A stretch of 64,000 bases of DNA, taken from a virus. The notes below the pieces were generated by a model. The model was given only the letters and a program-made list of their open reading frames with translations. It searched no databases and was not told where the DNA came from. The stretch spans positions 46,142 through 110,141 of the IMG/VR virus record IMGVR_UViG_3300042691_031577. One strand, 5' to 3'. Both the position numbers and the translations under genes were made by a program. Below, in pieces: positions 44,194 to 62,130 of this stretch (position 1 is the stretch's first letter; each line of letters starts with the position of its first letter).

Positions 44194-44204
44194 ATTAATA
44201 AATA

Positions 44205-44245
44205 TTTGGAGACTTAAAGAAAAAATTTTATCTTTACATCATAAT
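44205..44245 (+). promoter_or_regulatory. Bacteroidetes-type promoter driving tRNA-like RNA 1
   Basis: TTTG (44205-44208), 20 nt, TATCTTTA (44229-44236), then CATCATAAT. Confidence 0.7.
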
Positions 44246-44254
44246 AAATAAAAT

Positions 44255-44372
44255 AGTCAGGTGGCGAAAGGATCGGGATATCCCGGTCGTGGTAGACGCA
44301 GGTCGTAGGTAGCACCGTTTGCAAACAGCCTTAACGTGGTAAACATTACAGGTTCGAATCCTGTCCTGACTA
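44255..44372 (+). ncRNA. tRNA-like RNA 1 (118 nt; Leu-type D arm with an inserted hairpin; no canonical anticodon arm)
   Basis: Acceptor AGTCAGG/CCTGACT+A; T-arm ACAGG-TTCGAAT-CCTGT; D arm GCGAAA...TGGTAGACGC. Confidence 0.85.
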
Positions 44373-44745
44373 CAATATAAGTATATACTTTTGTCGACAC
44401 AAAAAGATCGTTTAAAAGAGTTCTTTGACATCTTGCAAAATTTCCCAAAAGGGGTTAGTCCGAAAATGCGAACGCAAAAATTGGAGATATACGTATATAC
44501 TGTCGATGGCGAAGAGGTGTTTGCGAGTTGTGAATACGTCACATTAAATTTTGTACCAACATCATCCCGCGCATGGACCGCGGCTAGCATGGGGACAGAT
44601 CGCTATTAGATCGCCGGCGGGCCGCTATCGCCTGCACTTCCCTAGATCTCTTTTGCCCGGCGGGTGATTTTTTATCGAGCGCGCTAGCTCGCGTAAATAT
44701 TGCTTTATACTAGCACACCTGCGATCATATGCGATAGAGACAAAA

Positions 44746-44775
44746 GAGCGCATGCTTTTATGTTCGCATGCGCTC
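44746..44775 (-). terminator. Intrinsic terminator closing the early cluster
   Basis: Perfect 10-bp stem GAGCGCATGC/GCATGCGCTC, followed by TTTTG on the minus strand. Confidence 0.7.
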
Positions 44776-44799
44776 AATCGTTTAAACCGTATGTTCTTA

Positions 44800-45195
44800 T
44801 TATCCGAATATAATGTCTTGATAGAATACGGTCTGCAGCATTACATCAGCTGTTTCCGCATCATCATTTTCAGTAATCATATTCGTCAGATGTTCTATTG
44901 GTGTCTGAGCTACTCTCTCATGAACGTCCGATAGATCAATTGTACTATTCATTTCACCATCACCTTCTTCATCTATTATAGTTAATGATTTACCTAAACG
45001 AAGTACCTCTAATAAAACATCCTCGTAACAGATTCCTTGATCGGGATTCTTTGATTTGAGGCTCTGCTTAGCGGCTTGATAATCTTGCTCATCTGTTTCT
45101 AAGATGAGACCGTAGCCTGAAATGTAAGACAATCCGTTACATAATGCATTGTGGAACATTTCTTCTGATTCTTGTGGTGTTAAAATTATTTTCAT
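44800..45195 (-). CDS. Hypothetical acidic protein (probable start 45195)
   Basis: MKIILTPQESEEM follows the hairpin promoter at 45218-45249; C-terminus DAETADVMLQTVFYQDIIFG. Confidence 0.7.
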   Translation of the reverse strand: MKIILTPQESEEMFHNALCNGLSYISGYGLILETDEQDYQAAKQSLKSKNPDQGICYEDVLLEVLRLGKSLTIIDEEGDGEMNSTIDLSDVHERVAQTPIEHLTNMITENDDAETADVMLQTVFYQDIIFG

Positions 45196-45369
45196 TTGTT
45201 TGTTAATTATTATGAGATAAAGATAGTGGACGAGCTTTGCCCGTCCACTTTTCCTTAAAACAACTAAACAATAATCAAACAAACAATCAATTATTAAACA
45301 TTATGAAATTGAATTTCGGTGTGATAAATGCTACTATAGCTAAGTTTTCCGGATCCGCTATTATTTTTA

Positions 45370-45585
45370 TCATTGCATTAGCCCTTTCATTCTTAGGATC
45401 TGATGTCTTAATTTCTCGATCTCCTCTTTCTGCTCGCCCATAATCATAAAACACATAAATGTAATTGCCATCATCAATACTAAGAAACCAATGATAAAAT
45501 CTTGATCGCTTTGTGCTTTAACAAACATTAAATACAGTGAGATAAAGCCTAATACTACACTGATAATTCCGTTTAAAATTTTCAT
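45370..45585 (-). CDS. Small two-TM membrane protein
   Basis: Two hydrophobic helices; own promoter cassette. Confidence 0.7.
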   Translation of the reverse strand: MKILNGIISVVLGFISLYLMFVKAQSDQDFIIGFLVLMMAITFMCFMIMGEQKEEIEKLRHQILRMKGLMQ

Positions 45586-45644
45586 ATCGTTTTGTTTTTA
45601 ATTGTGATGTAAAGGTAAGTGGCGAGCTTTGACTCGCCAAACAA

Positions 45645-45833
45645 TTAGTACATTTGATTTTTACAAAAGCGAGTAGTTCGGAATTTTGATTTACTCGTTG
45701 AACAAGAAGACATTACCGCAATACCTAGTATAAGTAAAACCCATACTACAAATAAAGCTTTAGCTTTGAATTGATGATTTTTTGTTACTTCGAAATCACC
45801 GTTCTCTAATTTTGTTACGTTAAAATCTGACAT
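45645..45833 (-). CDS. Small membrane or lipoprotein-like protein
   Basis: Hydrophobic helix ending MSSC. Confidence 0.6.
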   Translation of the reverse strand: MSDFNVTKLENGDFEVTKNHQFKAKALFVVWVLLILGIAVMSSCSTSKSKFRTTRFCKNQMY

Positions 45834-45895
45834 AATATTTTTGTTTTAATTGTGATATAAATGTAATAAAAAAGGCTCTGACGAGCCTTAAATAA

Positions 45896-46075
45896 TTAAC
45901 CTTGAATCATTATTCCGTTTTCAAATATAACCCAAGCATAATTTGAATAATGATCATTGGGTTCCATTAACTCTAACTCAGTTAGAACATCATTTAATTC
46001 TTCTCTAGTACATGTAGTAGTTAAATTAGAATAAATGTCACTTGGATTTGGGAAAATTAGATAAGTGTTTTTCAT
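45896..46075 (-). CDS. Hypothetical protein (59 aa, not in track)
   Basis: MKNTYLIFPNPSDIYSNL...FENGIMIQG*, between two cassette boundaries. Confidence 0.65.
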   Translation of the reverse strand: MKNTYLIFPNPSDIYSNLTTTCTREELNDVLTELELMEPNDHYSNYAWVIFENGIMIQG

Positions 46076-46132
46076 ATCGTTATTAATTGTGATATAAAAA
46101 TAAATGGGTAGTCTTGACTACCCAAATATTAA

Positions 46133-46366
46133 TTAATAATCTAAATTAAATGTAATGACTTTAGGTCCTATATACTTACCTTCATCATCGAAGATATCAT
46201 CATCGTCTTCATCAAAATTATCACAACATAAGTCATCGTCTAAATCAATGTCTTCTTCTTGTAATTCTAATTTGACTGTGTAATCAGTAGGATCAGTGTT
46301 TTTTAAACATATTACTGTTTCTGGATCTTGTTGAGATAGTATCTCAATTAATTCTTTTACTTTCAT
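46133..46366 (-). CDS. Small acidic protein
   Basis: MKVKELIEILSQQDPET; Asp-rich. Confidence 0.7.
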   Translation of the reverse strand: MKVKELIEILSQQDPETVICLKNTDPTDYTVKLELQEEDIDLDDDLCCDNFDEDDDDIFDDEGKYIGPKVITFNLDY

Positions 46367-46424
46367 TGTTTTATTTATTTAATTGTGATGTAAATATAAA
46401 CAACGAATTTTGACTAAACAACAA

Positions 46425-46586
46425 TTATTTCAATCGATATTGAAGTGTATCATTTACATTGTACTTAGCTGTGCTATAAACAGTGTATGTTAAGGTATCA
46501 TTCGCTGATTTAGCCTCATACTGGAAACTACCATTGCTGTACCCACAGCATGATATTATGATTATTTTTGCTATTAATATTTTCAT
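46425..46586 (-). CDS. Small protein (53 aa), paralog of 52468-52632
   Basis: MKILIAKIIIISCCGYSNGSFQYEAKSANDTLTYTVYSTAKYNVNDTLQYRLK*. Confidence 0.75.
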   Translation of the reverse strand: MKILIAKIIIISCCGYSNGSFQYEAKSANDTLTYTVYSTAKYNVNDTLQYRLK

Positions 46587-46598
46587 GATATAAAGATA

Positions 46599-46787
46599 TT
46601 ATCCTTTACCTTCTTCATAGATATCATAACTAGGATCATTATCATTTTCTTCTAGTTCTTGATCTAGAGACAAAAAATCACCTTTGAGTGCTTTATCTAA
46701 AGCTTCTTCTTCATTGTTTGCTTCAACAACATAAGTGTAAATAGACGTTATAGGTCTAATTTCATTTACAATAAATCTTTTTGACAT
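46599..46787 (-). CDS. Hypothetical protein
   Basis: VVEANNEEEALDKA motif; own promoter. Confidence 0.7.
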   Translation of the reverse strand: MSKRFIVNEIRPITSIYTYVVEANNEEEALDKALKGDFLSLDQELEENDNDPSYDIYEEGKG

Positions 46788-46896
46788 AGTATTTTTATTT
46801 AATTGTGATGTAAAAATAACAAAAAAATCTTGACAAACAACAAAAAAAGCGCCTCATTTCTGAGACGCTCTGTCTAATAAAAAACAACTATAACAA

Positions 46897-47292
46897 TCAA
46901 GAAACAACTTCTGCTTTAACTACCTTAGGCCTACCCGGTTTGATCTGAATACCGGCTGCTAGCTTCTCAGCGCGCGCCTGCATTCTTTGTTGACGGGCTG
47001 ATCCCTCTACAGCTGGCCTACCTCTGCGCAACAAACCTTCTTCACGCAAACGAGTTTTTTCAGCAATACGAATCTGTCTAGGTGAATTTGGATCCACCGG
47101 TCTACCTTTTTTCTTGGTAACACCCTCGTTTGTGATGTTGATGACAACATTCTCAGTTTGGGGTTCCACCTCTTGTTTGCCTGCGATTGCAGCTTCGATT
47201 TCGGCTTTTTTCATTCCGGTAATGTCAATACCTAATGATTTTGCTTCTGCTTTCATTGCGTTGAATAACGCTAATCCGTTTTGATTTTTCAT
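46897..47292 (-). CDS. Tandem GRP (AT-hook-like) repeat DNA-binding protein
   Basis: KKGRP, RRGRP and KPGRP; the first two are followed by SxRQ helices. Confidence 0.7.
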   Translation of the reverse strand: MKNQNGLALFNAMKAEAKSLGIDITGMKKAEIEAAIAGKQEVEPQTENVVINITNEGVTKKKGRPVDPNSPRQIRIAEKTRLREEGLLRRGRPAVEGSARQQRMQARAEKLAAGIQIKPGRPKVVKAEVVS

Positions 47293-47333
47293 AACCTTTA
47301 TTTTTTTATTAATTGTGATTTAAATGTACAAAA

Positions 47334-47510
47334 TTAGTTTTGACCATCAAGTTCTTTTCGCTCAGCAACTAGATACTCGATTTGATCAACAGGCATAGTC
47401 ATGATCAATTGTCTTAACATTTGATCTTCCATCCCTACTTCTCTGATGATGTTTTCCATTGTTTCACCATCTACTTCTTTTAATGCGTTGATAATTTCTT
47501 GTGTGTTCAT
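47334..47510 (-). CDS. Hypothetical protein (58 aa, not in track)
   Basis: MNTQEIINALKEVDGETMENIIREVGMEDQMLRQL...; promoter upstream. Confidence 0.65.
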   Translation of the reverse strand: MNTQEIINALKEVDGETMENIIREVGMEDQMLRQLIMTMPVDQIEYLVAERKELDGQN

Positions 47511-47589
47511 AATCGTTTTTATTTATGATATAAAGATAATACAAATAACTGTGCCTGACACAAAAAAAGCGCTCATAGAGCGCTTTAAT

Positions 47590-48003
47590 TTAAATTACTT
47601 CGTGCCATCCGTGAACGTTCCAATCTTTTTCTGTTTGACGATTTTCACTGAATTGAGTTAGATCATCTACTAGATAAAGACAACTGTCGCCACTCACGTA
47701 GATGTAGGCTTTGTCTTTAGGTACGGAAAAATCACTATCGATGTGCAAAACGCAATACATATCTTTTTTGATTTTGTATTCTTCTCCGAATATCTCTTTA
47801 CCTATCTTCTTGAGCAATGATTTGAATTCTTGATTGTCTTTTAAAAATTGTTCCCATTGTTTGCCTATACAATCATAACGATTATGCTCGTAATTTAATG
47901 CAGGCAAATTCTCAATTTTGATTAATTCAGTAAATGATAATTTACTTTTTCCGTGACCTAAAAAGGCCTTAGCAGCAGTGCTGCTGTTGATTGCTGTTGT
48001 CAT
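47590..48003 (-). CDS. Hypothetical protein
   Basis: 137 aa; promoter upstream; terminator AAAGCGCTC/GAGCGCTTT downstream. Confidence 0.7.
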   Translation of the reverse strand: MTTAINSSTAAKAFLGHGKSKLSFTELIKIENLPALNYEHNRYDCIGKQWEQFLKDNQEFKSLLKKIGKEIFGEEYKIKKDMYCVLHIDSDFSVPKDKAYIYVSGDSCLYLVDDLTQFSENRQTEKDWNVHGWHEVI

Positions 48004-48291
48004 AATTCAAAGAACTTATTAATTGTGATGTAAATATAATAAAATTACTTTGATCTACCAATATTTCTGAAGCTGCTTCGTTGTTTAAAAAATTTACTGT
48101 CGGACAAAGGAGCCCTCTTTGGAGCTGGAGCCCCAGGCCCTCCAGACCATCCTTCCCTCAGCTTCCCTCTTCTACACGCCGGACAAGGATCCCCAGGATC
48201 GTACGATAAAAATTGCTTAGAGCATTTATTACACTTAGTTCTCACCATAATACATAATAAAAATGGCGCTCAGATAAGCGCCAAAACCGTA

Positions 48292-48528
48292 CTAATAATC
48301 ATCAAATAGATCATCATCCTCATCTACATCGTCCCATACACCTTCTTCGGCGTCCGTCTCTAATTCATCGATCTCTTCTAATTCAGCAATCATGCTATTT
48401 ACTTGCTGACCCATGTATTCTAAGTCAATGTTGGTGATTACGGTATTAGATTCCATCGCTTCATCTAATATGTTATTGATTTCCTCTTCTGCTTTACGCA
48501 GGTGTCTTAATATTTTTTCCTTATTCAT
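48292..48528 (-). CDS. Small very acidic protein
   Basis: 78 aa with an Asp/Glu-rich tail. Confidence 0.65.
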   Translation of the reverse strand: MNKEKILRHLRKAEEEINNILDEAMESNTVITNIDLEYMGQQVNSMIAELEEIDELETDAEEGVWDDVDEDDDLFDDY

Positions 48529-48630
48529 GGTACAAAATTTTAGATAAATATAATAAAAAGGAATAAAAAAACAAAGAAAAAACCGCCTGCAGGCAAAAAG
48601 TCTACAGGCGATTTAGGTAAAAAACCGTTA

Positions 48631-48894
48631 CTAAGCAGCAACGGTTTCGGTTTGTTTTTTCGGACGTCCGGGACCTACTTTCTCACCGTTAGCAATACGC
48701 GCTGCGCGATCAGCTAATTTTTGCTGGCGTTTGCTTGTAGTTGATGCTGGACGACCTCTTTTAATTTGATCACCATTAGCGATTCGCTCTGCGCGAGCAG
48801 CTAATACTTGTTGACGCTTTGAACCTTCAACTGTTGGACGACCTTTACGTTTTGATTCTGTTGCAGTAGCAACTGTTGTGTTTTCTGTACTCAT
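48631..48894 (-). CDS. Tandem GRP (AT-hook-like) repeat protein, paralog of 46897-47292
   Basis: KRKGRPTVEGSKRQQ / KRGRPASTTSKRQQ / GPGRPKK. Confidence 0.75.
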   Translation of the reverse strand: MSTENTTVATATESKRKGRPTVEGSKRQQVLAARAERIANGDQIKRGRPASTTSKRQQKLADRAARIANGEKVGPGRPKKQTETVAA

Positions 48895-49342
48895 AACCTT
48901 TATTATTTATTTTTTAAATTTAACGATGTAAATATACGACTTGAGTTTTGCCTTCCAACATTTTTTGTTGCAAAAAATTCGTAGTAAAAAGAAATTGGCT
49001 ACAAGATACAAACAAAAGCTTTGCCAAGCACAAAGATAGCCTGCACAAAAGTGCTAGGTTTTCTAAAAATTTGTTCGTACATTGGTAATCATTTTCTGGA
49101 TTACTACAGTTGCTAAATTGTTTGTTGGTGATTATTGTCTGAACCTACCACAGTTTACATATTTGTTTGTTCGTACTGACTATAACCGTTGGCGGTGCTA
49201 CAAAGGGCTGTGCTACTAGGTTGAGTAACTCACGGGCTACTTAGACGAATTCATCGTTTGAACAACAATAAATATACGAGAACAAAAAAAGACAACCATT
49301 ACAGTTGTCTTTCCTTAACTAAATTTGCGCGTTTGCTTTGCG

Positions 49343-49606
49343 TTATCTGTGCGGCTTATATTCCTTCGCCATCCTATCCGCTCCTAATCCTTCATACTTA
49401 AGTAATGCGTTAGCAATATACATTTGAAAACGTTGAATTGTTTTACATTCATTAATTGCTTTTAAAATTGACTGTTTGTCTTTGTCGTTGATGTTTTTTG
49501 ACTGAACAAATTCGATTGTGTTTTGCTTTGCAAAATTCAGATCGGCTGTGTTGAATACTACTTCTGAAATCTGTTCAAAAATAGACTTGATTTGTACTTT
49601 TGACAT
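49343..49606 (-). CDS. Hypothetical protein
   Basis: 87 aa; promoter cassette upstream. Confidence 0.7.
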   Translation of the reverse strand: MSKVQIKSIFEQISEVVFNTADLNFAKQNTIEFVQSKNINDKDKQSILKAINECKTIQRFQMYIANALLKYEGLGADRMAKEYKPHR

Positions 49607-49971
49607 GTTGTTTGTTGTTTATGATGTAAATGTAGGCAAAAAATCTTGCCAAAACAACAAAAAAGAACAAAAAGAACGTAAAAAATTGGTACAAAATGCG
49701 TGAAAAGTATATCTGGATATATGGTCGAGTTGTAAGATGGGTGTTGGTGTGTACAATTTTCTCGATCTGCACCAATTCATCACCACCAATCACCACAACT
49801 CATTCCACCCATCACCCTAATCTTATTTTTCGAGCGCCCGAAACTCTCTTTTCAATTTCCCTACACTCTAGTTTTTGTCATCCGTTACTACCTTTTCGTA
49901 TCACCTAACCTCCATTACCTTCAGCGCCACTTTGCGCATCTTTAGTGCATCTAACACATTTGTTATTTTAG

Positions 49972-50054
49972 TAGTCAGGACAGGATTCGAACCTGCTTTA
50001 GGGCTTACGACCTATGATATTCTATTTACGACAACACCATGTCGCCACCTGACT
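49972..50054 (-). ncRNA. tRNA-like RNA 2 (83 nt)
   Basis: AGTCAGG/CCTGACT+A; T-arm GCAGG-TTCGAAT-CCTGT; 6-bp D stem GCGACA/TGTCGT; no anticodon stem. Confidence 0.82.
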
Positions 50055-50071
50055 ATTTTATTATTCTGGAT

Positions 50072-50263
50072 TTATATTATTCTCCATTTAAATTCATTTG
50101 TTTGTCCTATCTCATCTCCCACATCATTACTCCAAAGTATCAACATAGTATTTTCCTTATCATTTAACAATGATTTGAACCATTCCAATTCTTCCACATC
50201 ATTGTGGCTATACCACAACTCATCATCTATTTCTATTTCACACTCTATTTTTAGTTTTGCCAT
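50072..50263 (-). CDS. Hypothetical protein (probable start MAKLKIEC)
   Basis: Track ORF 50072-50287; the internal ATG is more plausible. Confidence 0.6.
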   Translation of the reverse strand: MAKLKIECEIEIDDELWYSHNDVEELEWFKSLLNDKENTMLILWSNDVGDEIGQTNEFKWRII

Positions 50264-50495
50264 AGGTTTCGTTGTAATATTGTTCAAATTCTTCTTTATG
50301 AAACTTTAATGAATTTTCTCCATTAACATAGTTCTTTTTAATATATTCAAACATCTCTTCCTTCTCCATTGCTTTGGCTTGTTGGAATTCTTCTTTAAAA
50401 GCTACATAAAAAGACATGGCAATAAAACTATCACTATCTTTTGTGGCTATTTTTTCCATTAACCATTCTACTGCTGTCTGTTTTTTATTTTCCAT
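50238..50495 (-). CDS. Hypothetical protein of the KQTAVEWL...EQYYNETY type
   Basis: KQTAVEWL, AKAMEKE and EQYYNETY motifs, recalled from Flavobacteria-type phages; probable start MENKKQ. Confidence 0.7.
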   Translation of the reverse strand: MENKKQTAVEWLMEKIATKDSDSFIAMSFYVAFKEEFQQAKAMEKEEMFEYIKKNYVNGENSLKFHKEEFEQYYNETYGKTKNRV

Positions 50496-50505
50496 TGTTA
50501 CCTCC

Positions 50506-52001
50506 TTATTGTTTTGTTTCATCTTCACCCTCATCTAACCCAAACTCATCATACACATGTTCCATAACATTATATGCTTGTTCACCCGATAGAAAATGAC
50601 TTATAATCAGATCTAGTATTTGTGAATCCTGATAACCAAATTCTCTTAGGTTATCTAACATTGCAATAGCATTGTTTCTGTTTCGTAGTGTTGCCATTGT
50701 TATTTATTCATTAGGGACAGTAAAAATACCTATGTCAACTACTTGTACTTGTTTACCAACAAGATCATCAATAAAATATTTACAACCCCGTTCATCATAA
50801 AACATCATATCATCATTCCAATCCATTGGATTGTTCAAAACGGAAAATATATTATGGCCCTTTGCTGAGCTTTCTGTTCTACCCCAGTTATCAATAACCT
50901 CCGAGTAGTAAACAATTTTGATTGGTGTCATCGTTACTTAATTTTACCTTCTAAATGTGAAATAGCTACTTCAATTGCACCCTGTAAATAACCTACTATT
51001 TGAGCGTGTGGTATTTTATTATCCCACTGTTGTTCAGATGAAGCTAAACCTGTTTTTAACGCTTCAATTACTGCTTCAATTTCTTGTTTTGACATAACCT
51101 TAATTTATTAATTGTGATGTAAATGTATAAAGGAGGGCTTTGCCCTCCTAATCAACTTGAGTTTTAACCCAATCATGCAATGCTATTATTTCTTCGTAGA
51201 ATTGATAAACATCCATATCACCATCTTTAATAGCATCACGAAAATTTTCAATATCGTTTATTAACGTATTTAGTAAATATTCTTGTTCTGACATATTATT
51301 TATTTATTATTACTTAGTAAATATAACATCCTACTTCTCAGAAGCCAAACATGTTTTAACTTTTGATAAAACAAATTCATAAATATCTTGTTCATCAAAA
51401 CCTTCTTCAATCCAATTTTTACTTAGGATTTTAATAGTTTGTTCTAAAATTTCTACATGTTTAGTAGGACTCATACCTTCCATGTAATCTAATTTTTCTA
51501 AAAACATATTATTTATTAATTGTGACATTGTAAATATAACATTCTACTCCTCAGAAGCCAAATATTCATTTAACCCTACTAAATAACCTACTAACTCAGC
51601 TTCAACTACTTCATTAAAGATATTACTATTAACCAAACCATCAATTGTATCTTTAATATAAAGTAAGGCATTATAATTTTGTTTTTCAAAATCCTCACCA
51701 TTCCAAGTATCAATAAATTGTTCTGCTACAGCCCAACCATGTTTACTTTCAATAATTCCTGAGGTAATCGTTTCTATTCTCATATTATTTATTTATTAGA
51801 GTTAAACATATTGGAATAAACCTTATTACACACCTCACAATTGGCCTCAGTCAATCCCTCAATACGAGCCCAATTAGTTGCTAATGCAGGGGTACCACAT
51901 AAGTTACCTTTACCTGATTCATAGATGTGAGCGTTGTTACTCCATACTGTGCCTTTGTTTCCGTAAATACTAAACTGTGATTTTAATTCTGCTACTTTCA
52001 T
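50506..52001 (-). CDS. Run of short early hypothetical ORFs (50506-50697, 50704-50931, 50934-51095, 51148-51294, 51331-51528, 51544-51783, 51789-52001)
   Basis: Track ORFs plus two hand-translated ORFs (53 and 48 aa); tightly packed, several with promoter cassettes. Confidence 0.6.
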
Positions 52002-52193
52002 GTTTTAATTTATTAATTGTGATGTAAATGTACGAATAGTAGTCTTGCCAAACAAATAAACATTTTTTATGTTATACAGATAATAAAATTAATGTTAATG
52101 GTAAAAATGTTAAGATAATGCTTACAATAGCACTAAATAAATCTTCATGTTTCTTGATAAATTGTTTCATTTCAGTTTTGTTTTTAAAGTTAG

Positions 52194-52300
52194 TAGTCAG
52201 GACAGGATTCGAACCTGTATGCGTAACTTTCTTGGCCCCTCCCCAATGGCACGCTGTCCACTCGTTAATATAAGCGTCTAACCAATTCCGCCACCTGACT
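52194..52300 (-). ncRNA. tRNA-like RNA 3 (107 nt; tRNA-Leu-type D arm; expanded non-canonical interior)
   Basis: AGTCAGG-TG-GCGGAATTGGTTAGACGC...ACAGG-TTCGAAT-CCTGT-CCTGACT-A. Confidence 0.85.
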
Positions 52301-52467
52301 ATGTTTTTTACATAAAGATTGCCATTAATAAACAAGCAATCAATATAATGGTTATTCCAACTGTTCCTCCAAATGATTTAGTTTCCAATTGGTTTATTAT
52401 GAACTTTTTCATATTATTTAATTTTTATTATGATGTAAATATATAAACAATAATCTTGCCAATCAAA

Positions 52468-52632
52468 CTATCTTACAGTGTATTGGATCGTATCACCAAC
52501 ATTGTACTTTGTAGTGCTATAAACACTGTACGTAGTACTGTCTTTTGGTGATTTAGCCTCGTAGTGATAAGTACCATTACTGTACTCACCACAACATACA
52601 ATTACAAATAATTTTATGATAAGTGTTTTCAT
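52468..52632 (-). CDS. Small protein (54 aa), paralog of 46425-46586
   Basis: MKTLIIKLFVIVCCGEYSNGTYHYEAKSPKDSTTYSVYSTTKYNVGDTIQYTVR*. Confidence 0.75.
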   Translation of the reverse strand: MKTLIIKLFVIVCCGEYSNGTYHYEAKSPKDSTTYSVYSTTKYNVGDTIQYTVR

Positions 52633-52892
52633 AGCGCCTCAATTTGAGTTAATAATTCATCAACTTCATTATCCTGCAAATAACCTAACACATCACTTGT
52701 TATTGGTGTAGTGTAACATATGTCCCATTCTTCCTCATTACCTTTAATTACGGCTAGCTCCCACAATCCCCTATTTCCACCATATGAGAATTCATGTTGA
52801 ACAATTGATGCTCCATATCCGTTTGGATAGAAAACTAAATACTGAATACCGGTGTCGTATACAACACGACTTGGCAATGATTTAAATGACAT
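52629..52892 (-). CDS. Phage hypothetical protein
   Basis: PNGYGASIV...SYGG..GLWELAV...TPITSDVLGYL. Confidence 0.75.
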   Translation of the reverse strand: MSFKSLPSRVVYDTGIQYLVFYPNGYGASIVQHEFSYGGNRGLWELAVIKGNEEEWDICYTTPITSDVLGYLQDNEVDELLTQIEAL

Positions 52893-52946
52893 ATTGTTTT
52901 AATTTATTGATGTAAAGATAATATTTTAGCTTTGCCAATCCACCAT

Positions 52947-53900
52947 TTAAATTTCTGCAATAACATCATTCTCATCAATGTCAGTTGGAGTTGGTGTACG
53001 ATTAGCCCATTCTGATATAGCTTGTTGGAGATGAGCTCTTGCTTCTTGTACTGGGTTTGGGCGAGGTTCTGCTATCTCGTTCTCTAATAATGTATATTTG
53101 CTCATAATTAGACGTTCTTCTGCTTCAACTAATTCCTCACTACGTAAATCAGCGTTTGTAACCTTATTAGCTATTTGTTCTTTGATAATGTCTAATACAA
53201 AACTAGGTAAATCTGATTCCATTGAATCTATACGATCGTCTTTAGCATTCCAAAAACTAGTTTCCTTATCATAATCAGAGTTAATATTATGGAAAAATGC
53301 TACTTTATCACCTGTTTTTGTGTTTATACAATAAATCAATATACCACGACGTATGTACCTAAAAAAGTGTTCACTTTCATTTTTCATTGCAGTACACCAT
53401 TTAGTACCATAACCATATTTGACTGATGATTCGTGTGACAGCGGTTTGATAACCAGCCAATCTCTATCATCATTTAAAACGATAATTTGTTTTTCTAATT
53501 CCTTATCATTTAATCTTAACTCAGCCAAACCAATAGCTTTACTTAAATCAGAAAGAGTTGAGTAAGTTGATATATCGTTATTGGCAATAAGTTGTCTTTC
53601 ATTTAACTCATGGAATTTGTAAACATTAGACAAATCGCTGTGTTCAAAAAGACGTAAAAACTCATGAAACAATACTTTGGTAAAACGATCTTGATTTTTT
53701 ATTGTTTGAGGACATCCTACCTCTATGAATTCATCAAGATATGAATCTATATCTCTAAGTCCTAAAAATCTTTGTTTGATACTTGCTACAAACAAATCAA
53801 CATATTTTGATTTACCTGATGGGTCTATCATTTGGATAACATCCATCAATGTTAAATTCAAAAAATCATGTTGTTTTTTTAATGTTTTAACTTTGCTCAT
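52947..53900 (-). CDS. Hypothetical protein with YG.GTKWC domain
   Basis: WLVIKPLSHESSVKYGYGTKWCT. Confidence 0.75.
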   Translation of the reverse strand: MSKVKTLKKQHDFLNLTLMDVIQMIDPSGKSKYVDLFVASIKQRFLGLRDIDSYLDEFIEVGCPQTIKNQDRFTKVLFHEFLRLFEHSDLSNVYKFHELNERQLIANNDISTYSTLSDLSKAIGLAELRLNDKELEKQIIVLNDDRDWLVIKPLSHESSVKYGYGTKWCTAMKNESEHFFRYIRRGILIYCINTKTGDKVAFFHNINSDYDKETSFWNAKDDRIDSMESDLPSFVLDIIKEQIANKVTNADLRSEELVEAEERLIMSKYTLLENEIAEPRPNPVQEARAHLQQAISEWANRTPTPTDIDENDVIAEI

Positions 53901-54433
53901 ATTCTGATGTTTAGAATATCTTTTTTAATGTAACTAAGTTTAAGTTGATTTGTTTTAACAAAACTAGATTGAATATCGATTAACTCACAGACAATAAACT
54001 TATCTTCAACTTCAACCGACTTAAGAGCATAACTGAGTTGACATTTAAGTAAATTATCAGGAGTATATCTTATCTTGAATTTAATCACTTTCTTTTTCTA
54101 GGTTTGTAATTGAATTCGGCTTCGTCTTCAACAATAATTTGTTTTTTGGGTTTACCATACTTATTGTTCTTTTTCATTTGCTCTAACCAAGCACTTAAGC
54201 ATTCCCATTTTAATCTTTGACTCATATATTAGTTATTAATAGGTGTATATTGACGAATTTTAATACCAGCATACTTTGACTCTAACATAGCCTTAGCATA
54301 CGACCATTGAGAGGCCTCAACTACTTCTGTAAGTGACCTACCGTTAGCGGCAGGTGTAGTGAATGTAACTTTCCATTTATACATAATCTTCTTTATTTAT
54401 TGATTTAAAGATAATAAAATCGTTTTGCCTTCC

Positions 54434-54991
54434 CTAATCTAAGGCATAATAAAATCGTTGTTGATTGTATTTGGCAACCTGATTTGACTCAGCCAATACA
54501 CGATACGCTTGATTTGTATTATCATACACTCGCTCGAGTGATGATTCAGCCAGTAGTTGTTGACCTAATATTTGAGCAAACATATCATTTGATTCATTTA
54601 CTTGTTCTTGAGTTGAAGGTATCCCACAATAAACAGACTCACCTACTTCAGATACAAACATACCTGAATATATTCCATTCAAACCATACCAATCAACAAA
54701 TTTATCTGCATTACACCAAATAAACACGCTATTGTCTTTCTTTCTAAGAACCCCTACTACATTGTGGTCTATGATAAATCCATTTGTATTTTTAAATTTT
54801 CCAACTGAAAATAATCCAAATGGTGCTCCATGCCCCATCATCATAACTTGATCATGTTGGTCAATCATATCTATAACCTGCTCTTTGGTTACCCCACCTG
54901 TAACTACAGTTGTATTAGGTAACTGTTGATATATAGGGCGTAGAAAATCTGTAGACCTATCATCAGGATGTATTACTAAAATCTTTTTCAT
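54434..54991 (-). CDS. Hypothetical alpha/beta protein with a possible caspase/gingipain-fold His-Cys dyad
   Basis: VMMMGHG...VFIWCNA; hairpin promoter at 55003-55032. Confidence 0.5.
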   Translation of the reverse strand: MKKILVIHPDDRSTDFLRPIYQQLPNTTVVTGGVTKEQVIDMIDQHDQVMMMGHGAPFGLFSVGKFKNTNGFIIDHNVVGVLRKKDNSVFIWCNADKFVDWYGLNGIYSGMFVSEVGESVYCGIPSTQEQVNESNDMFAQILGQQLLAESSLERVYDNTNQAYRVLAESNQVAKYNQQRFYYALD

Positions 54992-55259
54992 ATTATAAAG
55001 TATAAAGATAAGAAAGGGGTTTTGACAACCCCAATCTTACACAATTAAAAACTAAAACACATGTGCCACAAACAAAGCACAGTTTCTTTATTCGAAATAC
55101 AACATTTCAACGCACGCTTGGTGATCAAACATACCCATATCTTCAAACATTGAATATGCACCATCTGGGTCTGATACAGATACAACTTCAATTACTTCGT
55201 GAACTACGTTTGCGCCAAATTCCTCTATAGCGTCTTGTATTTTATTATCTGTTGTCATA

Positions 55260-57344
55260 TTATTCTCTCCACCATTTATAGTGATCGGGTGATGTATTTA
55301 ATATACGTTTAGAGGGTTTTGGTTTGCGACCTCGTTTTGGACGACGTTCCTCCAAATCCTCTGGTTCTATTTTAGGCCATTTTGAAGCTGGGTTTTCGTA
55401 AAATGCTTTTTTACGTTCTTCATATGGAATATCATTCATTTCATTTTCCATGATTTAAATATACAAACTTTATTTTGCCTTCCAAAATATATTTTAAATT
55501 AATGCTGTTAACCATTTTGCAAACAAATAACCACTATATGCTCCTAAAGCAGCGGCCATAGGTAATACTATAAACTTGCCTAATTTAGTTTCATACTTAT
55601 TCCTATTCAATATAAATGAAATTAAAGTATAGTACAGTATGAAATTAATAAACACAGCTATGTCTATTTGTTTAGCCATAAACACTACAATACTATTACC
55701 TAAAAATCCCCAACCATAATTAACTAATGATTCTTGAATAATTTCTAGTGGTGTTGTTTTGGCGTCTAGTATTTTGATTTTTTTATTTATATGTTTTTTC
55801 ATTTATTTAAACTATTAGAAATACCACATTTGTGTTTATGTTGAACATACCATAATATCCTAAATGTCCCTAAAACAAAAAAGTAAGTATCAAATTCATT
55901 TATCTCATCTGTTGATTTACATATACCTGTATGGTAAGCTGGTATTTTTGTTTTAATAGTCTTAGCTGATTTAGGGAAAGTTTCAAATGATATACTATAT
56001 CGCTTTGTTAATTTGAATGATTTATACATAATTTACTTATTGTTATTAAATTTATAAATATAAGTTGTATCACATTTACCATCAACACATTCAATTTTTA
56101 TTGATGGTGTGATTTGTTTTTTAATTTCAAATGATTGCTTATCATTCCAACCCACATACATACTTAATATTACTAACGCAAATAAAGCAAATATAAATGT
56201 TCCTATATAATCATTATATCTATCTATAATAAACATTGCTATAAGTAAACATACTAATACAAATACTATTATTAATTCTATCATAATTTTTCTATTTCTT
56301 GTTTTACCAATTGCCAATAATGCATTACCATATCTTCATTTACCAAATTGAATTTTAGTAGCACATTCCTTTCTGCTTTTTCTATTTCATCTACTGCTAT
56401 TAAAGCACATTGTTTTACTCTTTGATTACTACCACCCAATGCAGTATCCAAAACAACTAAATTATATTTTTGAATCAGCTCTATTGCTTTTTCTCTCGGT
56501 GTCATAATCTCTTTTAATTTTTTCATTTATCGCCTCAGCGATGAATTTACCTACTTCATCCTGAAATTTAGCAGCCTCATCTTCTGTATCAAATTCATGT
56601 TGTAAAGCACCCCAACCTCTAACTTCTCCAATCATTTGACTCCCACCATCATCATCTTGTTTACTCCATAGGTACTGACCAAATGGATCATAATAAACAT
56701 CTTTAAGCCATTCTTTTAATTTCATATTTCAACTTCATATTTTGTATGTGGATAATAATCTAAACAATACACTTTAACCTTATCTTTTATAATCTCACCT
56801 CCAAATAAAAACTCATACTCATAATATCCCTCATAAGCATCACCATATTTAGATTGGTAAGGTATAAATCCTAAACATTTTGCTGTTTCATCTTTACCTA
56901 TACCATACCATTCATCTAATGCTAATCTTAAATCTCCAAATGTTGATGCTGTTGTTAATGGTATATTTTCATCTGAATCAACTGCTAAGTATGTTACTTT
57001 AATTCTTGTTTGTTTCATAATTTATTCAAATCTTCTTTTAATCGTCTTAAAAATGATTCTTCACCATCATCACCACTCACCAACCAATCTATTCGTTGAG
57101 CATAGATTTCAGCTTTTCTAAGTATGTCTAATCCCTCTTTAAACTTATCAATTACTTCATCAGAGTATTTATGATGATACAATTCATTGGGGTGTCGTTC
57201 ATAAAAATCATCTCCATACCATCGTTGATTTTCTTTAATCAACTCATCATCTATTTTCTTACCATTCTTTTCAATAAGTCGTTCTACACTATCAGCTATT
57301 TCTCTGATACGGTATTGATTATAATCAAAATGTCCTCCACTCAT
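55260..57344 (-). CDS. Run of short hypothetical ORFs (55260-55451, 55494-55802 membrane, 55799-56029, 56033-56317 membrane, 56281-56526, 56462-56725, 56722-57018, 57015-57344)
   Basis: Contiguous minus-strand ORFs, several with ATGA overlaps; no recognisable catalytic motifs. Confidence 0.6.
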
Positions 57345-57378
57345 ATTATTATTTTCTTACATTGTAAATGTAACAAAC

Positions 57379-57966
57379 TTATTTTGATGAGCCAAATCTC
57401 ATTTTTAAATTTTCTCTATTAATCATATCCTTTAATATTGAAACATAATTAGGATTCTCAGCGTATGATTGAGATAAATAATCAAAATACAGTTCTTCAG
57501 TTGTAATGTTTGATAGATATTTACATTGATAAAATGAGTAATCTAAAACTGATTCATACCATGTATGATAATAAGCATGGTTATTTTCAGTTCCTTTAGC
57601 AGTTGTTATACGTTGATGTGCTTCACGCATACCGAACAGATTATTATTTTCCCTAAATACTTTACTTGTAAAATTACCTGTTTCAAGTTTTGCTTGAGCT
57701 AATACTATGTGAGGGAATTTAATGTTTAATTCTTTTAGTTTTTCAATTAATTTGTCTTCTGAGAATTTATTATACTCTTGAATAACAATCAATTTTTCTT
57801 CCTCAGATAAACTGAGTAAAACATTTTTACCCAATTTATAGCCTGAGTAAAATAAAATAGAACCTAATACTGTTGTCACAATAATAGTGATGACAATAAT
57901 TTTACCTACTACATTAATTGGTTTTGGTTGTAGTGTTTTGGGATCAATTCTAAAGATGTTTTTCAT
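57379..57966 (-). CDS. GH73 glucosaminidase (peptidoglycan hydrolase) with N-terminal TM anchor
   Basis: VLAQAKLETG...NNLFGM...YAENPNY; start MKNIFRID at 57966, after the hairpin promoter at 57981-58011. Confidence 0.85.
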   Translation of the reverse strand: MKNIFRIDPKTLQPKPINVVGKIIVITIIVTTVLGSILFYSGYKLGKNVLLSLSEEEKLIVIQEYNKFSEDKLIEKLKELNIKFPHIVLAQAKLETGNFTSKVFRENNNLFGMREAHQRITTAKGTENNHAYYHTWYESVLDYSFYQCKYLSNITTEELYFDYLSQSYAENPNYVSILKDMINRENLKMRFGSSK

Positions 57967-58015
57967 ATTATTTGTTTTTATAAAGATAATAAAGGGGCTT
58001 TGACAGCCCCTATCT

Positions 58016-59176
58016 TTAGTGTGAATCTCCAACATCATGTTTTTCACTCCAAATTAAATAATCTGGGTTAATACACTTGTACACTTTATTTCGTTCTCCT
58101 GATGTATGTTTAATAACAATACCTTCATGTGGTACTTTAGTATCTTCAATATTATTATTGAATGTATATTTGTCTTGCATTTCTTGATTCCAATAACCTA
58201 TATATAAAACAGGTACGTGTGGTAAATCAATACCACCGATAAAATCAAAAGCCTTCCCAGCCATTGTGTAGTAAGTTTGCTCAGTAGATAAATAATTACC
58301 ATTCCATATAATATCAAACCCAGCAAACTCTAATTCTTTTAATCCGTAATCATAATTCTTTTGAATACCAGGACCATATATCTCACCATAAACCACTATC
58401 CCATTTCCAATTTCTGATGGTTTATGATTTTTAACAAACGCCCATAATTTATTTTTAATGTCGTATTTTTCAGCTACTGTTCTCCATACGTCTGTATCAT
58501 AGAAACCTTGTGAGTCACTACCTTTTTCTACATTATGAGAACCATAAACATATTCATAGTCAATCCATTTATCAGCTAAACCAAAGAATTTCTTTAACTT
58601 ATCCCAGAATGATAATTTATTTTTCTTAACAATACCATAACGAGCATTAGTACCATGTAACTTACGGGTGATTTGAACTTCATCTTCTTCAGTAAACATA
58701 CCGCTAACATTTTTAGCATTAGGAAATTTATAGTATACTTGGAAGTTTGGATTCTGGTGGTATTTAATTTTACGACCTGAAGACAATTGTACTTGTACTG
58801 CTGGTGGTTCGTATTTATAGATTTTAAATAAATCCATCATATCAGCACCTTCAGCCCATTTAGCTTTAGGATGTGTTAATTTCTCAGCATATCTAAATGG
58901 AATAATTAAACATTCACTATATACTCCTCTCAATTTAACAGTACGTACACGTTGACCTTTTCTTAAATAATTAGTCACGCCCATACTATCTGATAACTCT
59001 TGAGGTATAACAGCATCGGTAGTAGCTATGATTACTAAATCACCTACACTGTATTCACCTTTTTTAGTAATACAATTCCATCCACCAGCAACAACTTGTT
59101 CAATGTTGTCTGCACCTGGGATTGGTTTTACTTCGTTGATTGTTGTAACATAACAAACACTATTATTATTTTCCAT
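58016..59176 (-). CDS. RNA ligase, DRB0094/Rnl5-like (N-terminal OB fold + nucleotidyltransferase)
   Basis: PIPGADNIE...VKLRGVYSE, motif I TRKLHGTN, YGEIYGPGIQKN, FAGFDI, EGIVIK, YKCIN. Confidence 0.9.
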   Translation of the reverse strand: MENNNSVCYVTTINEVKPIPGADNIEQVVAGGWNCITKKGEYSVGDLVIIATTDAVIPQELSDSMGVTNYLRKGQRVRTVKLRGVYSECLIIPFRYAEKLTHPKAKWAEGADMMDLFKIYKYEPPAVQVQLSSGRKIKYHQNPNFQVYYKFPNAKNVSGMFTEEDEVQITRKLHGTNARYGIVKKNKLSFWDKLKKFFGLADKWIDYEYVYGSHNVEKGSDSQGFYDTDVWRTVAEKYDIKNKLWAFVKNHKPSEIGNGIVVYGEIYGPGIQKNYDYGLKELEFAGFDIIWNGNYLSTEQTYYTMAGKAFDFIGGIDLPHVPVLYIGYWNQEMQDKYTFNNNIEDTKVPHEGIVIKHTSGERNKVYKCINPDYLIWSEKHDVGDSH

Positions 59177-59202
59177 AACTTAAAGTTTTATTTCAAATCT
59201 AT

Positions 59203-60285
59203 TTACTCATAAGAATCTCTATCAATTTTAATTACATATGGAAATCTTGGAACACCATCAGGTGTTAAATTAAAATACTTAACTGTTGCTTGTTTACCTA
59301 TTAATGTGTCTTTTTGTTTCCACATTTCAGTACATTCTTCCCAATTGAATTTAGGTGAGGCATTAAATCGTTTACCATCTTTATTTTCAAATACAAATGA
59401 TCCTATCATACCTGTTTTATTACCACCACCTTCTTCAATATCAAGTATAGTATATTCTTCATCAATAAATGATTTATGTTTGAGTAATGATTTAGAACGT
59501 TTGTTTTCATATTCATTATCTAAACGAATCATTTGACCTTCATAACCTTGTTCAACATACTCAAAATAATAATTTTCTATATCTTCATCATCAAAACATT
59601 GATGAGTATCAACTAATACACAACATTCAGGTAATTGTAAACTCCACAATTTATTATATCTATCTGAAAATACTCCACTATATGAAGGTAAATCATAAAT
59701 GTGATACTGGATTGATTCAGCGCTTTTTTCTAAATCTTGTGCTGTTGGTTTAGTTTTCTTAACTAACGAGCATATAGCATTGAAATCATTTGCGAATTTA
59801 TCTGCGTATAACTCGCCGTCAAATATAAGGTCAGGGTTTGTGTCAAATAATGAAGACAACGCGTTAAAAATGTGAGGAGCCGATATAATCTTCTTACCAT
59901 TTCTACTCCACATACCGTCTGCTCTTACAATACAACGAATACCATCTAATTTAGGTTGTGAGTAAACTGGGTATTTGATTTTACTTTTATAATCATTGAA
60001 GTCTTGTGCTAACATTGGTTTGAAGAACACAGGTGTGTCGATGTCGTTTATATTTTCAAACGAACCTAATTCAATACGTTTACGATGTATTGCTTGTGCT
60101 TCTTTAAGTGCTTGCTCTTCTGCTGTGCAATATGATTTGGCTTCACAACACGTCCATTCACTTGTTGTTTTAATACCATCAGTATAACCTGATATTGTTC
60201 TATAGCAGTTATTCTCAACTTCAATAGTCCATTGAGTAACTTTACCTGTTGTTGATCGTTTGTATAGTGTGTTTAATAGTACCAT
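59203..60285 (-). CDS. ATP-dependent DNA ligase
   Basis: PMLA, QPKLDGIRC, FDGELY, YHIYD, GYEGQMIR, LLKHK, PRFP. Confidence 0.95.
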   Translation of the reverse strand: MVLLNTLYKRSTTGKVTQWTIEVENNCYRTISGYTDGIKTTSEWTCCEAKSYCTAEEQALKEAQAIHRKRIELGSFENINDIDTPVFFKPMLAQDFNDYKSKIKYPVYSQPKLDGIRCIVRADGMWSRNGKKIISAPHIFNALSSLFDTNPDLIFDGELYADKFANDFNAICSLVKKTKPTAQDLEKSAESIQYHIYDLPSYSGVFSDRYNKLWSLQLPECCVLVDTHQCFDDEDIENYYFEYVEQGYEGQMIRLDNEYENKRSKSLLKHKSFIDEEYTILDIEEGGGNKTGMIGSFVFENKDGKRFNASPKFNWEECTEMWKQKDTLIGKQATVKYFNLTPDGVPRFPYVIKIDRDSYE

Positions 60286-60286
60286 A

Positions 60287-62048
60287 TTAATTACTTGCTC
60301 TATGTGGTTGATTATCGTTTACGTTTTCAGTTGTTTTTGGTGGTGGAGGTGGTGGTGTTGATTCTTTAGATTTTATAATAAAGTAAAATTTATCATTATT
60401 TTCTAATCCGTACTCTGCCACTTCATATATATCCAAATCAACTACTTTACGTTCATGTATTAAAAAACGAGCTATAATATCAATACGCTCTGTACCTTGA
60501 AGTTCATAAGTGACTTTTGTTTTTTTATCTTTATAAAACAAACTAATAAATCTTTTACCCCAATCCATAACCTTTATTTTTAATTAATTAAGGAAATCTA
60601 ATATAATTTCCTTGCCAAAAGAACCTCTTTTGATCGTCTCAAATTGCTCGATGTTAGTAAGTGGTTTGGCATCAGATAATTCAAATGACCATCTAAATTT
60701 ACCTCCGTTATGTAGCCCAGCAAAATAACCATCATCGCTTATCACAATAAATTCTTTGGGTGGAATCCATTTTTTACGTTTCTTTACCATCTGCTGCCTT
60801 TTAGTTGACCTTCTGTTATCTCAGCATTCAAATATAATATAACATTATCTGTTAGTTTTTTAAGTGCTTGTGCTCTTTCTTCTATCTCAATCCTTAGCTC
60901 AGCACCATATTTTTCTAATAAACGTTCTTTAGCCATTTCCTTTAATTCAGGTATTGGTCTTAGTTCATCGGCCCAACGTGCAATTAAATACTTATCACAT
61001 ATTGATTCTGTGGTACCATAGTAATCAAAACCTACAGTCTCAGCATAGTTTTTAGCTTGTTCACTTGAATCAAACAACATATCTTTATTGTTTGTATCTT
61101 TAAGACGATTATATGATTTATTGTATGGAGTCCATTTTTGTACATAACCTACAGCAAATGGATCAGGTGATTTATCATCATACCATATTTCAATTTTAGT
61201 GAAATGTTTTTCTTTTACTGAGTATCCTATTTGCCTAAGTACCTCAAGAGGTATAGTTGTTTTACTATACGTCTTAAAATCAGTACTTGCAGGACATAAT
61301 GTTTTAAAAATAAGATTCATTGAATTGTTAATGTGAGGATATGGAATAGGTGATTCTGCTTTTCTAACAAAATCTAATTGAGATTCCATCCCCAATTCAT
61401 TAGCTAACTCTTTCCATTCATCTAATGCTTCAATTTGAAACATGATGTCATTTAATTCTTCGTTTTGGTAAATTTGTACGGCCATAACATTTATTTTTGT
61501 AAATATAAGTAAAGTATTTTGCCTACTATAATCCTTTTTTCGAAAGATGTTTTAATGTTTCTAAATCATCATTACTAATGAATCTTCTATTATCCCATAC
61601 TTTATCAAGTATATCAGCTAATTCTTTTTCTAAATTAGTTTGAGGTATTCTACTTTCCCAAATAGCAACCTCAGCATTAAGTTCTTTAGGTATAATACCT
61701 TCCTCATATAACGCCTCAGCCATTTCTTGTTTTTCATACTTAGACATATCCCACATCAAATCGTCTATGTCTATGTCAACTGTGATACTTGCCATACTAT
61801 GCTTCTCCTTTTATTTTATTGTGATTATATAATTTATTTAATTGTTCAATTTCAGATGCTTCTTTAAGTGCTTGAACTAGTGTCATATGAGCAATCATTA
61901 TGTTTCTGATGTCCTCATTCTGACGAGATTGTTCTTCACTTATTGCATTTAATTCACTATTAATTTTATTAATGTGTATTACACAATATATCGCAAGCGA
62001 GGTAACTATCGCTAATAATGTTGAGAGAATTGTTATCGCTATAATCAT
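60287..62048 (-). CDS. Run of hypothetical ORFs (60287-60568, 60584-60790, 60784-61485, 61526-61795, 61797-62048)
   Basis: Contiguous minus-strand track ORFs; no function recognisable. Confidence 0.6.
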
Positions 62049-62061
62049 ATTTTGATGTTAG

Positions 62062-62130
62062 TAGTCAGGACAGGAATCGAACCTGTGTCTCCCATACCAA
62101 TATGGGGCGTTACCACTACGCTACCTGACT
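62062..62130 (-). ncRNA. tRNA-like RNA 4 (69 nt; shortened anticodon arm)
   Basis: AGTCAGG-TA-GCGT-AGTGGTA-ACGC-CCCATA-TTGG-TATGGG-AGAC-ACAGG-TTCGATT-CCTGT-CCTGACT-A; only 20 nt between D and T stems, against 22-23 canonical. Confidence 0.85.

Follow-up and report, generated by a model that had tools for sequence, protein, structure and literature searches.

A family of tRNA-shaped RNAs with a fixed frame and variable inserts in uncultured phages

The DNA analysed here is a 64,000-nt window (positions 46,142 to 110,141) of IMG/VR virus record IMGVR_UViG_3300042691_031577, a contig of 110,141 bp estimated to be 66% complete. The window carries four elements that share the acceptor stem and T arm of a transfer RNA (tRNA) and enclose unrelated interiors, and these elements belong to a large phage family. 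We favour, with moderate confidence, the reading that they are non-decoding, tRNA-shaped small RNAs in which the constant frame is a handle for maturation and stability and the insert is the effector. Under this model the frame, made up of the acceptor stem AGUCAGG/CCUGACU, A73, usually a leucine (Leu)-type D arm, the 15:48 tertiary pair and the T arm ACAGG-UUCGAAU-CCUGU, would fold into a tRNA elbow and an acceptor-T helix. RNase P would cut the 5′ end of a longer transcript, the 3′ end would pass through the tRNA-trimming pathway, and CCA would then be added. The frame would be a built-in handle for maturation and stability, perhaps also a docking site for a conserved cellular tRNA-binding factor, and the interior would be a separate structured module under its own selection, the effector part of the molecule.

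A 25-nt 3′ motif occurs at exactly four sites in the window (44349-44373 on the plus strand; 49971-49995, 52193-52217 and 62061-62085 on the minus strand), with 0 expected from 100 shuffles of the window, and a 5′ motif is found at the same four sites. Counted from A1 to A73, the elements lie at 44255-44372 (plus strand, copy 1), 49972-50054 (minus strand, copy 2), 52194-52300 (minus strand, copy 3) and 62062-62130 (minus strand, copy 4), with lengths of 118, 83, 107 and 69 nt, exactly as a first-pass annotation made from the sequence alone had placed them. The acceptor stem AGUCAGG/CCUGACU, A73 and the T arm RCAGG-UUCRANU-CCUGY are exact in all four copies, and a 7-bp acceptor stem, a 5-bp T stem and a 7-nt T loop are seen in the unconstrained folds and in the Rfam alignments. 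Position -1 is T in every copy, A73-C74 precedes A or T, and CCA is encoded in none; the shared acceptor stem and T arm without an encoded CCA had likewise been noted before.

The interiors are built differently. In copy 1 the D stem is GCG/CGC, the D loop holds an additional hairpin of 7 bp, and the 48-nt interior is branched; no other copy lies on the plus strand, where copy 1 is antisense to its flanking genes. In copy 2 a 6-bp D stem is followed by a single-stranded linker of 13 nt and a short hairpin, and copy 3 has a canonical Leu-type D arm with A15:U48, a linker of about 19 nt and then a two-part hairpin at the position of a long variable arm; both are without an anticodon arm. Copy 4 is a near-canonical cloverleaf with G15:C48, whose anticodon arm is a 6-bp stem closed by UUGG (alternatively 5 bp with a 6-nt loop). 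The D-loop hairpin (copy 1), the 6-bp D stem (copy 2) and the 6-bp stem closed by UUGG (copy 4) all appear in unconstrained minimum-energy folds, in agreement with the earlier description of these features.

Two further copies of 143 nt each lie outside the window on the minus strand (G000:C1:63-205 and 327-469), which brings the contig to six. In the same unconstrained folds the acceptor stem is present in all six, and the T arm in all except 63-205. The two extra copies adjoin tRNA-Glu(UUC) (G000:C1:703-775) and tRNA-Leu(UAA) (1-55, cut by the contig end); a tRNA array thus occupies the contig start, 45 kb upstream of the window. Within the window, the four copies are scattered among early genes.

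Codon reading by these RNAs is very unlikely, since they have no 7-nt anticodon loop: a 5-bp/7-nt anticodon arm with U33 and a 3-nt anticodon is absent from the four copies according to both ARAGORN and Rfam, as the first-pass annotation had proposed. ARAGORN called only copy 4, with a 2-nt ‘anticodon’, and left copies 1-3 uncalled. With the Rfam tRNA model (RF00005, gathering threshold 29 bits), copies 4 and 3 exceeded the threshold at 56.8 and 36.1 bits, copy 2 fell below it at 26.9 bits, and copy 1 gave no hit; in the alignments the anticodon arm is skipped for copies 2 and 3, and copy 4 has a shortened anticodon loop. Across the family, ARAGORN made calls in just 42 of 143 members, with scattered identities and 2- or 4-nt ‘anticodons’, and a few members have a regular 5-bp/7-nt arm, such as the one with a UUU loop in locus L059. 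A search of the contig for transfer-messenger RNA (tmRNA; ARAGORN -m) found none. No other Rfam family was matched, and at permissive thresholds the elements of ten related loci matched only tRNA or tRNA-Sec. Between tRNA genes in related phage tRNA arrays there are also near-matches to the Rfam freshwater-1 RNA (RF02979; L023:4124-4186 at 70.1 bits and L084:6709-6771 at 68.3, threshold 72).

Covariation shows that the fold is maintained. Relatives of copy 3 were picked by their insert, which left the frame free to vary, and gave 22 distinct sequences (alignment A1). Standard pairs fill 99.6% of the pair cells of this alignment, and 10 pairs are changed on both sides, compared with 1.2 in shuffles (0 of 500 reach this number) and at most 3 when partners are slid. 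Four of the ten compensated pairs belong to the acceptor stem, four to the T stem and two to an interior helix (columns 48-53/75-81) located at the variable-arm position. Compensated variants carried on the copy-3 insert comprise the acceptor AGUGGUA/UGCCGCU, in one member, and the T stems ACAAG/CUUGU and ACAUG/CAUGU. For the copy-2 type (alignment A2), both-sided changes occur at 1:72 and at 12:26, within the long D stem. The 15:48 tertiary pair also covaries: 173 members have A:U, and of the 11 that carry G15, 10 have G:C where 1.0 would be expected (Fisher p = 3e-11); within the window it is A:U in copies 1 and 3, G:C in copy 4 and a non-standard A15 with A48 in copy 2. The compensatory stem changes and the covariation of 15:48 reveal constraint at the RNA level and therefore argue against a purely DNA-level role.

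The family itself is large. An exact 22-nt T-arm/acceptor motif identifies at least 164 elements in at least 119 IMG/VR contigs and recurs in 28 binned-genome contigs, about half of them from Bacteroidota bins, which are most likely mis-binned phage DNA. Counting the IMG/VR elements, the binned-genome contigs and relatives reached via an RNA ligase gene, we obtained 219 distinct sequences, which range from 54 to 203 nt (median about 106) and come from over 160 contigs of uncultured phages. Complete genomes that bear the family span 40 to 271 kb, and no cultured carrier was found among 50,697 phage records. In 61 of 147 loci there are canonical tRNAs (273 in total), with the elements on the same strand and often between them. 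No description of the fixed-frame family was found in the literature or catalogues searched, and it is not in Rfam. The first-pass label of an undescribed system is nevertheless too broad, as T5 RNA1/RNA2 and T4 rnaC share the architecture. One isolate genome, that of Hymenobacter montanus BT664, contains a tRNA-Arg(CCU)-like body that ends in the family's 3′ end (L138:6790-6881). There the 3′ strands of the T stem and acceptor are replaced by those of the family, no 5′ acceptor strand matches, and ARAGORN makes no call; the element may be a scar of recombination or integration.

The inserts behave as modules under selection. A search of related phages for the shared ends, followed by a comparison of the first 190 interiors, left 151 without a detectable relative among the others. 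Where an insert does recur, it is conserved: loci with the copy-2 or copy-3 insert have an element 92-94% identical to that of the window, amid flanking genes that cannot be aligned, and have no other DNA in common with the window. Viral contigs with the copy-3 insert number 40, and about 10 others carry the copy-2 insert on this frame; an 18-mer search of IMG/VR with the copy 1 insert found no family relative. A common layout is seen in copies 2 and 3 and in the cluster of loci L060/L018/L065, namely a D arm, a conserved single-stranded linker of 12-19 nt, a hairpin at the variable-arm position and the T arm. It resembles a class-II tRNA whose anticodon arm has been swapped for a single strand. 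In alignment A1 the interior helix shows compensatory change. The earlier proposal of a constant tRNA frame around unrelated interiors, as opposed to decaying pseudogenes, is upheld by the 219 members, by the compensatory changes and by inserts conserved between unalignable flanks.

Processing signals point to the tRNA pathway. Around the 190 elements, U-1 is present in 84% (160/190) and C74 in 98%, followed by A-rich sequence without CCA. The 519 canonical tRNAs of these phages have C74 in 97% (501), then AA or TA, with CCA in 31 and U-1 in 75%. As the flanks of the elements equal those of canonical phage tRNAs, both most likely share one route of RNase P cleavage, 3′ trimming and CCA addition, so far as can be judged from sequence. 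The C74-then-AA/TA flank is nearly uniform in the canonical tRNA genes of the fetched phage loci (L006-L295). Neither a CCA-adding enzyme nor a leucyl/phenylalanyl (L/F)-transferase was found on the 66%-complete contig. The suggested pairing of T-1 with A73 is available in all four copies and in most of the family; it is not invariant.

Elements of this kind are also present in RNA libraries. Four lake metatranscriptome runs contain parts of the 9-kb stretch 44000-53000, as assembled contigs that cannot rank genes by expression, and we take these data as a hint only. In the two best runs the bins with copies 1, 3 and 2 are among the four deepest (195/106, 54/37 and 37/20, against mostly <25). 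Contig matches stop at A1 and at A73/C74: those over copy 1 span 44254-44375 and 44255-44339, ending at 44254/44255 and 44375, and one contig over copy 2 ends at 49972. At a depth of 251, the joint just after C74 of copy 1 (44373) carries CAC where the genome has AAT, which could possibly represent A73-C74 followed by a non-templated C-A. Elsewhere in this stretch, the bin 44903-45203, without a tRNA-like element, is as deep as the element bins (48/20), and a joint that goes back 95, from 45148 to 45054, reaches depths of 144/54 in two runs. On the plus strand 3′ of copy 1 (region 44391-44677), an open reading frame (ORF) of 72 codons starts with TTG and is without relatives among the fetched loci, a hairpin and T run resembling a terminator lie at 44653-44677, and RNA contigs cover 44349-44570; the region may be a short plus-strand unit among minus-strand genes. 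Promoter and terminator scans around the four copies gave no excess over shuffles.

Several results weigh against a non-decoding RNA with a frame as handle and an insert as effector. A pure handle role leaves the near-fixed acceptor and T-stem sequence, beyond its pairing, unexplained. The RNA data are assembled contigs from libraries that may contain DNA, with depths that sum relatives sharing the ends, and the reading of the CAC joint given above is not unique. The family is dispensable: of ten complete relatives of the source phage, eight have 1-8 copies and two have none. A k-mer enrichment across the 190 interiors found no common motif, just weak stem-like words. No antisense target was found in the phage: the six interiors, compared by blastn-short with the 110-kb contig, gave best matches of 20-24 bits, not above shuffled interiors. 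No partner protein emerged when 2,923 ORFs of 148 loci were clustered all against all, the most widespread cluster reaching 16 of 148 loci; annotated clusters near the family are terminase, DUF932 and unknowns. Around the copy-3 insert, a neighbouring protein cluster reached at most 8 of 41 loci, and the only ORF cluster common to most of them is a spurious antisense frame over the element itself. The RNA ligase encoded at 58016-59176 showed no link either, with one weak match in eight complete family-bearing genomes, and an element lies within 10 kb in just 19 of 80 RNA ligase loci.

The frame is also fixed in sequence. Of the anticodon-less, variable-length genes that carry a Leu-type D arm in the fetched loci, 94 match AGTCAGG exactly and 8 are one letter off, whereas 23 tRNA-Leu genes with a valid anticodon, called by ARAGORN in the same loci, have about 21 different acceptor stems; as the loci were mostly chosen for the frame's 3′ motif, this comparison speaks to the diversity of canonical genes and not to frequencies. 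The acceptor stems of real tRNA-Leu drift freely in these phages and that of the frame does not, and ordinary tRNA enzymes are no explanation for a frozen sequence. A bolder version of our reading addresses this point, although we consider it speculative and rather unlikely: a natural modular RNA platform, with a phage-private frame that resembles no tRNA-sized sequence found in the searched bacterial genomes and would be fixed because a conserved cellular or viral factor reads the acceptor-T helix. Hundreds of interchangeable modules would be made, matured and shielded on this frame and would act as aptamers or decoys towards host defences or regulators. If true, it would explain the rapid turnover of modules and the variable copy number between sister phages.

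Alternatively, only the frame might matter, as a decoy or sponge for a synthetase, for a toxin targeting the CCA end or acceptor or for a tRNA-sensing defence, the interior merely folding away; this we judge unlikely. Its strengths are that the frame is far more uniform than structure demands and that close relatives have 0 to 8 copies, as accessory arms-race genes do. Most members also keep A73, A14, A15:U48 and G18G19, the leucine identity set, and the leucyl-tRNA synthetase of E. coli reportedly charges minimalist tRNA-Leu that lacks the anticodon and variable arms. Copies 1 and 3 carry the complete set; copy 2 departs from it with A48 and a D stem of 6 bp, copy 4 with G15:C48 and a D arm not of the Leu type, and about one third of family members are without a Leu-type D arm, so that a leucine charge cannot be the common denominator of the family. 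The earlier attribution of a Leu D-arm pattern with A15, U48 and A73 to copies 1 and 3 is accurate, and the pattern extends to most of the family without being universal. Mimicry of a host tRNA acceptor was sought and rejected: in 201 evenly sampled Bacteroidota genomes no AGTCAGG acceptor was found in a tRNA-sized match (1 hit, against 6 in a reversed control), and the frame is therefore not a copy of a tRNA in those genomes, the hosts themselves not being established. Evasion of EF-Tu via the T stem was likewise rejected, since the predicted affinity is an ordinary +0.4 kcal/mol, with 54% of canonical phage tRNAs at or above it (values from Table 2 of PMC3239215; comparison with non-proteogenic tRNA-Gly, PMC7826273). 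All three results count against a role of the frame alone, as do inserts conserved at 92-94% with compensatory stems, which would be unexpected in a spacer.

The folds could instead punctuate mRNA, letting RNase P and RNase Z cut polycistronic early transcripts as in mitochondria and leaving the excised RNA as a by-product. We hold this to be a poor explanation overall, even though five of the six copies on the contig lie between small ORFs of the same strand, the ATG of the next gene follows 14 nt past the 3′ end of copy 4, and the flank signals are tRNA-like. Copy 1 is antisense to its neighbours, many members sit in pure tRNA arrays without an mRNA to cut, an ordinary tRNA would serve equally well, and the conservation and covariation of the inserts are left unexplained.

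Working tRNAs of unusual build, with introns whose removal restores an anticodon arm or with odd loops, are very improbable. In their favour, copy 4 scores 56.8 bits with every arm kept, and its 6-nt loop might read two bases. Its 18-nt arm recurs letter for letter on tRNA-like genes with other acceptors (L292:7350-7420 and L293:1690-1760) and on an AGTCAGG-acceptor gene in L294 (minus strand), so that it is conserved across different acceptor stems like a true isoacceptor family; the L292 gene stands within a tight array between tRNA-Ile and tRNA-Val, and this type of arm may represent a distinct tRNA class with a 6-nt anticodon loop. The few members with regular arms, among them the UUU loop of L059, and the introns that ARAGORN proposes for copies 1 and 3 point the same way. 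Those introns were rejected: the intron mode puts them at positions 31, 39 and 33, not 37/38, and reads Leu (copy 1), Val (copy 3) and Gly (327-469), identities that clash with one shared acceptor stem, so that none of them yields a consistent cloverleaf. Moreover, the only covarying interior helix of copy 3 is at the variable-arm site while its anticodon-arm site is single-stranded, and the anticodons called in family members are scattered in identity and frequently 2 or 4 nt long. Least credible of all is a DNA-level role, in which the conserved ends would serve for recombination or homing or would bound a small mobile element and the tRNA likeness would be historical, for although the ends form an 8-bp inverted repeat in most copies, the inserts differ like cassettes, homing endonuclease genes occur in the T4 and T5 tRNA regions and the Hymenobacter L138 hybrid exists, the stems change by compensation, 15:48 covaries and no recombinase or endonuclease is consistently nearby.

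The source phage is a T4-like myovirus of about 30% G+C, as indicated by its portal, large terminase (TerL) and baseplate wedge genes. Judged by terminase, Flavobacterium phage immuto comes closest among cultured phages (TerL 55% identical); no match to the family's 3′ T-arm/acceptor motif was found in it with up to 3 mismatches allowed. DNA nearly identical to that of the source phage is present in many freshwater metagenome runs. The RNA ligase gene at 58016-59176 (minus strand; PF09414 and a PHA02142 OB fold) adjoins an ATP-dependent DNA ligase gene at 59203-60285 (minus strand) and has at least 216 relatives in IMG/VR; synteny with the closest of these was tried and abandoned, the region being too mosaic for a comparison of orthologous positions. 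Two ORFs drawn across the elements were judged spurious. One of 118 codons at 44234-44590 (minus strand) crosses copy 1, and its sole similarities are antisense translations of the element in other phages; the other, of 87 codons at 52072-52335 (minus strand), crosses copy 3 and was set aside on judgement rather than on similarity. Annotation treats genes of this family as tRNA or pseudo-tRNA or misses them altogether, and places spurious ORFs over them.

Several known RNAs resemble the family. The nearest are T5 RNA1 and RNA2 (NC_005859 30501-30644 and 32959-33083), annotated as ‘tRNA-like stable RNA with unknown functions’ in the tRNA region of that phage. RNA1 has a Leu-type D arm with a loop identical to the family's, a T arm, paired ends and three hairpins within an interior of about 80 nt. 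The T arm of RNA2 is letter for letter that of copy 2; RNA2 also has an 8-bp terminal stem, and a second T-loop-like hairpin lies inside it, as in several family members. Both differ from the family in their acceptor stems, and by eye, rather than by alignment, they show no similarity to the window inserts. They are single genes of one cultured coliphage with experimentally known stability, whereas the family is a fixed frame with hundreds of inserts whose stability we infer. The species 1 and 2 RNAs of T4 (rnaC and rnaD; NC_000866 70908-71171) are small stable RNAs that end the T4 tRNA cluster. A canonical T arm stands beside the 3′ end of rnaC, as in the family, but rnaC has no clear 7-bp acceptor stem and no Leu-type D arm, rnaD folds without any tRNA arm, and neither has frame sequence in common with the family.

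Class-II tRNA-Leu (RF00005) resembles the family in its acceptor, D and T arms, in A73, A14, A15:U48 and G18G19, in its processing flanks and, for copies 2 and 3, in the hairpin at the variable-arm position. It differs in that the family is without the 5-bp/7-nt anticodon arm and has one fixed acceptor where canonical genes have about 21. In tmRNA, an acceptor-T helix built from the 5′ and 3′ ends surrounds a large non-tRNA interior, and maturation follows the tRNA pathway. The elements share such a helix enclosing a non-tRNA interior, but they have U3:A70 instead of G3:U70, a full tRNA D arm, and interiors that are far shorter and mutually unrelated. In the engineered ‘tRNA scaffold’, a tRNA frame is said to give processing and nuclease resistance to an RNA inserted at the anticodon region. 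By this description the design logic is the same; the scaffold is man-made, whereas the family uses a private acceptor and, in place of a closed anticodon stem, often has a single-stranded linker and a hairpin like a variable arm. If the inserts are indeed effectors, the family would be a natural counterpart of that scaffold and a new layer of phage-host RNA biology.

The kind of RNA described here is thus already known from T4 rnaC and T5 RNA1/RNA2. We know of no function established for the tRNA-like stable RNAs of T4 and T5 since their discovery decades ago, and the family now offers hundreds of natural variants for comparison, in which a constant frame is clearly set apart from inserts under selection. 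The frozen acceptor is a puzzle in itself, as the real tRNAs encoded by these genomes are free to vary theirs. The apparent novelty lies in the scale, in a private frame that does not drift and in the evidence for selection on the inserts as modules. The stable-RNA design of T4 and T5 is therefore no curiosity of two coliphages; it represents a widespread, strongly conserved and highly diversified class in environmental phages.

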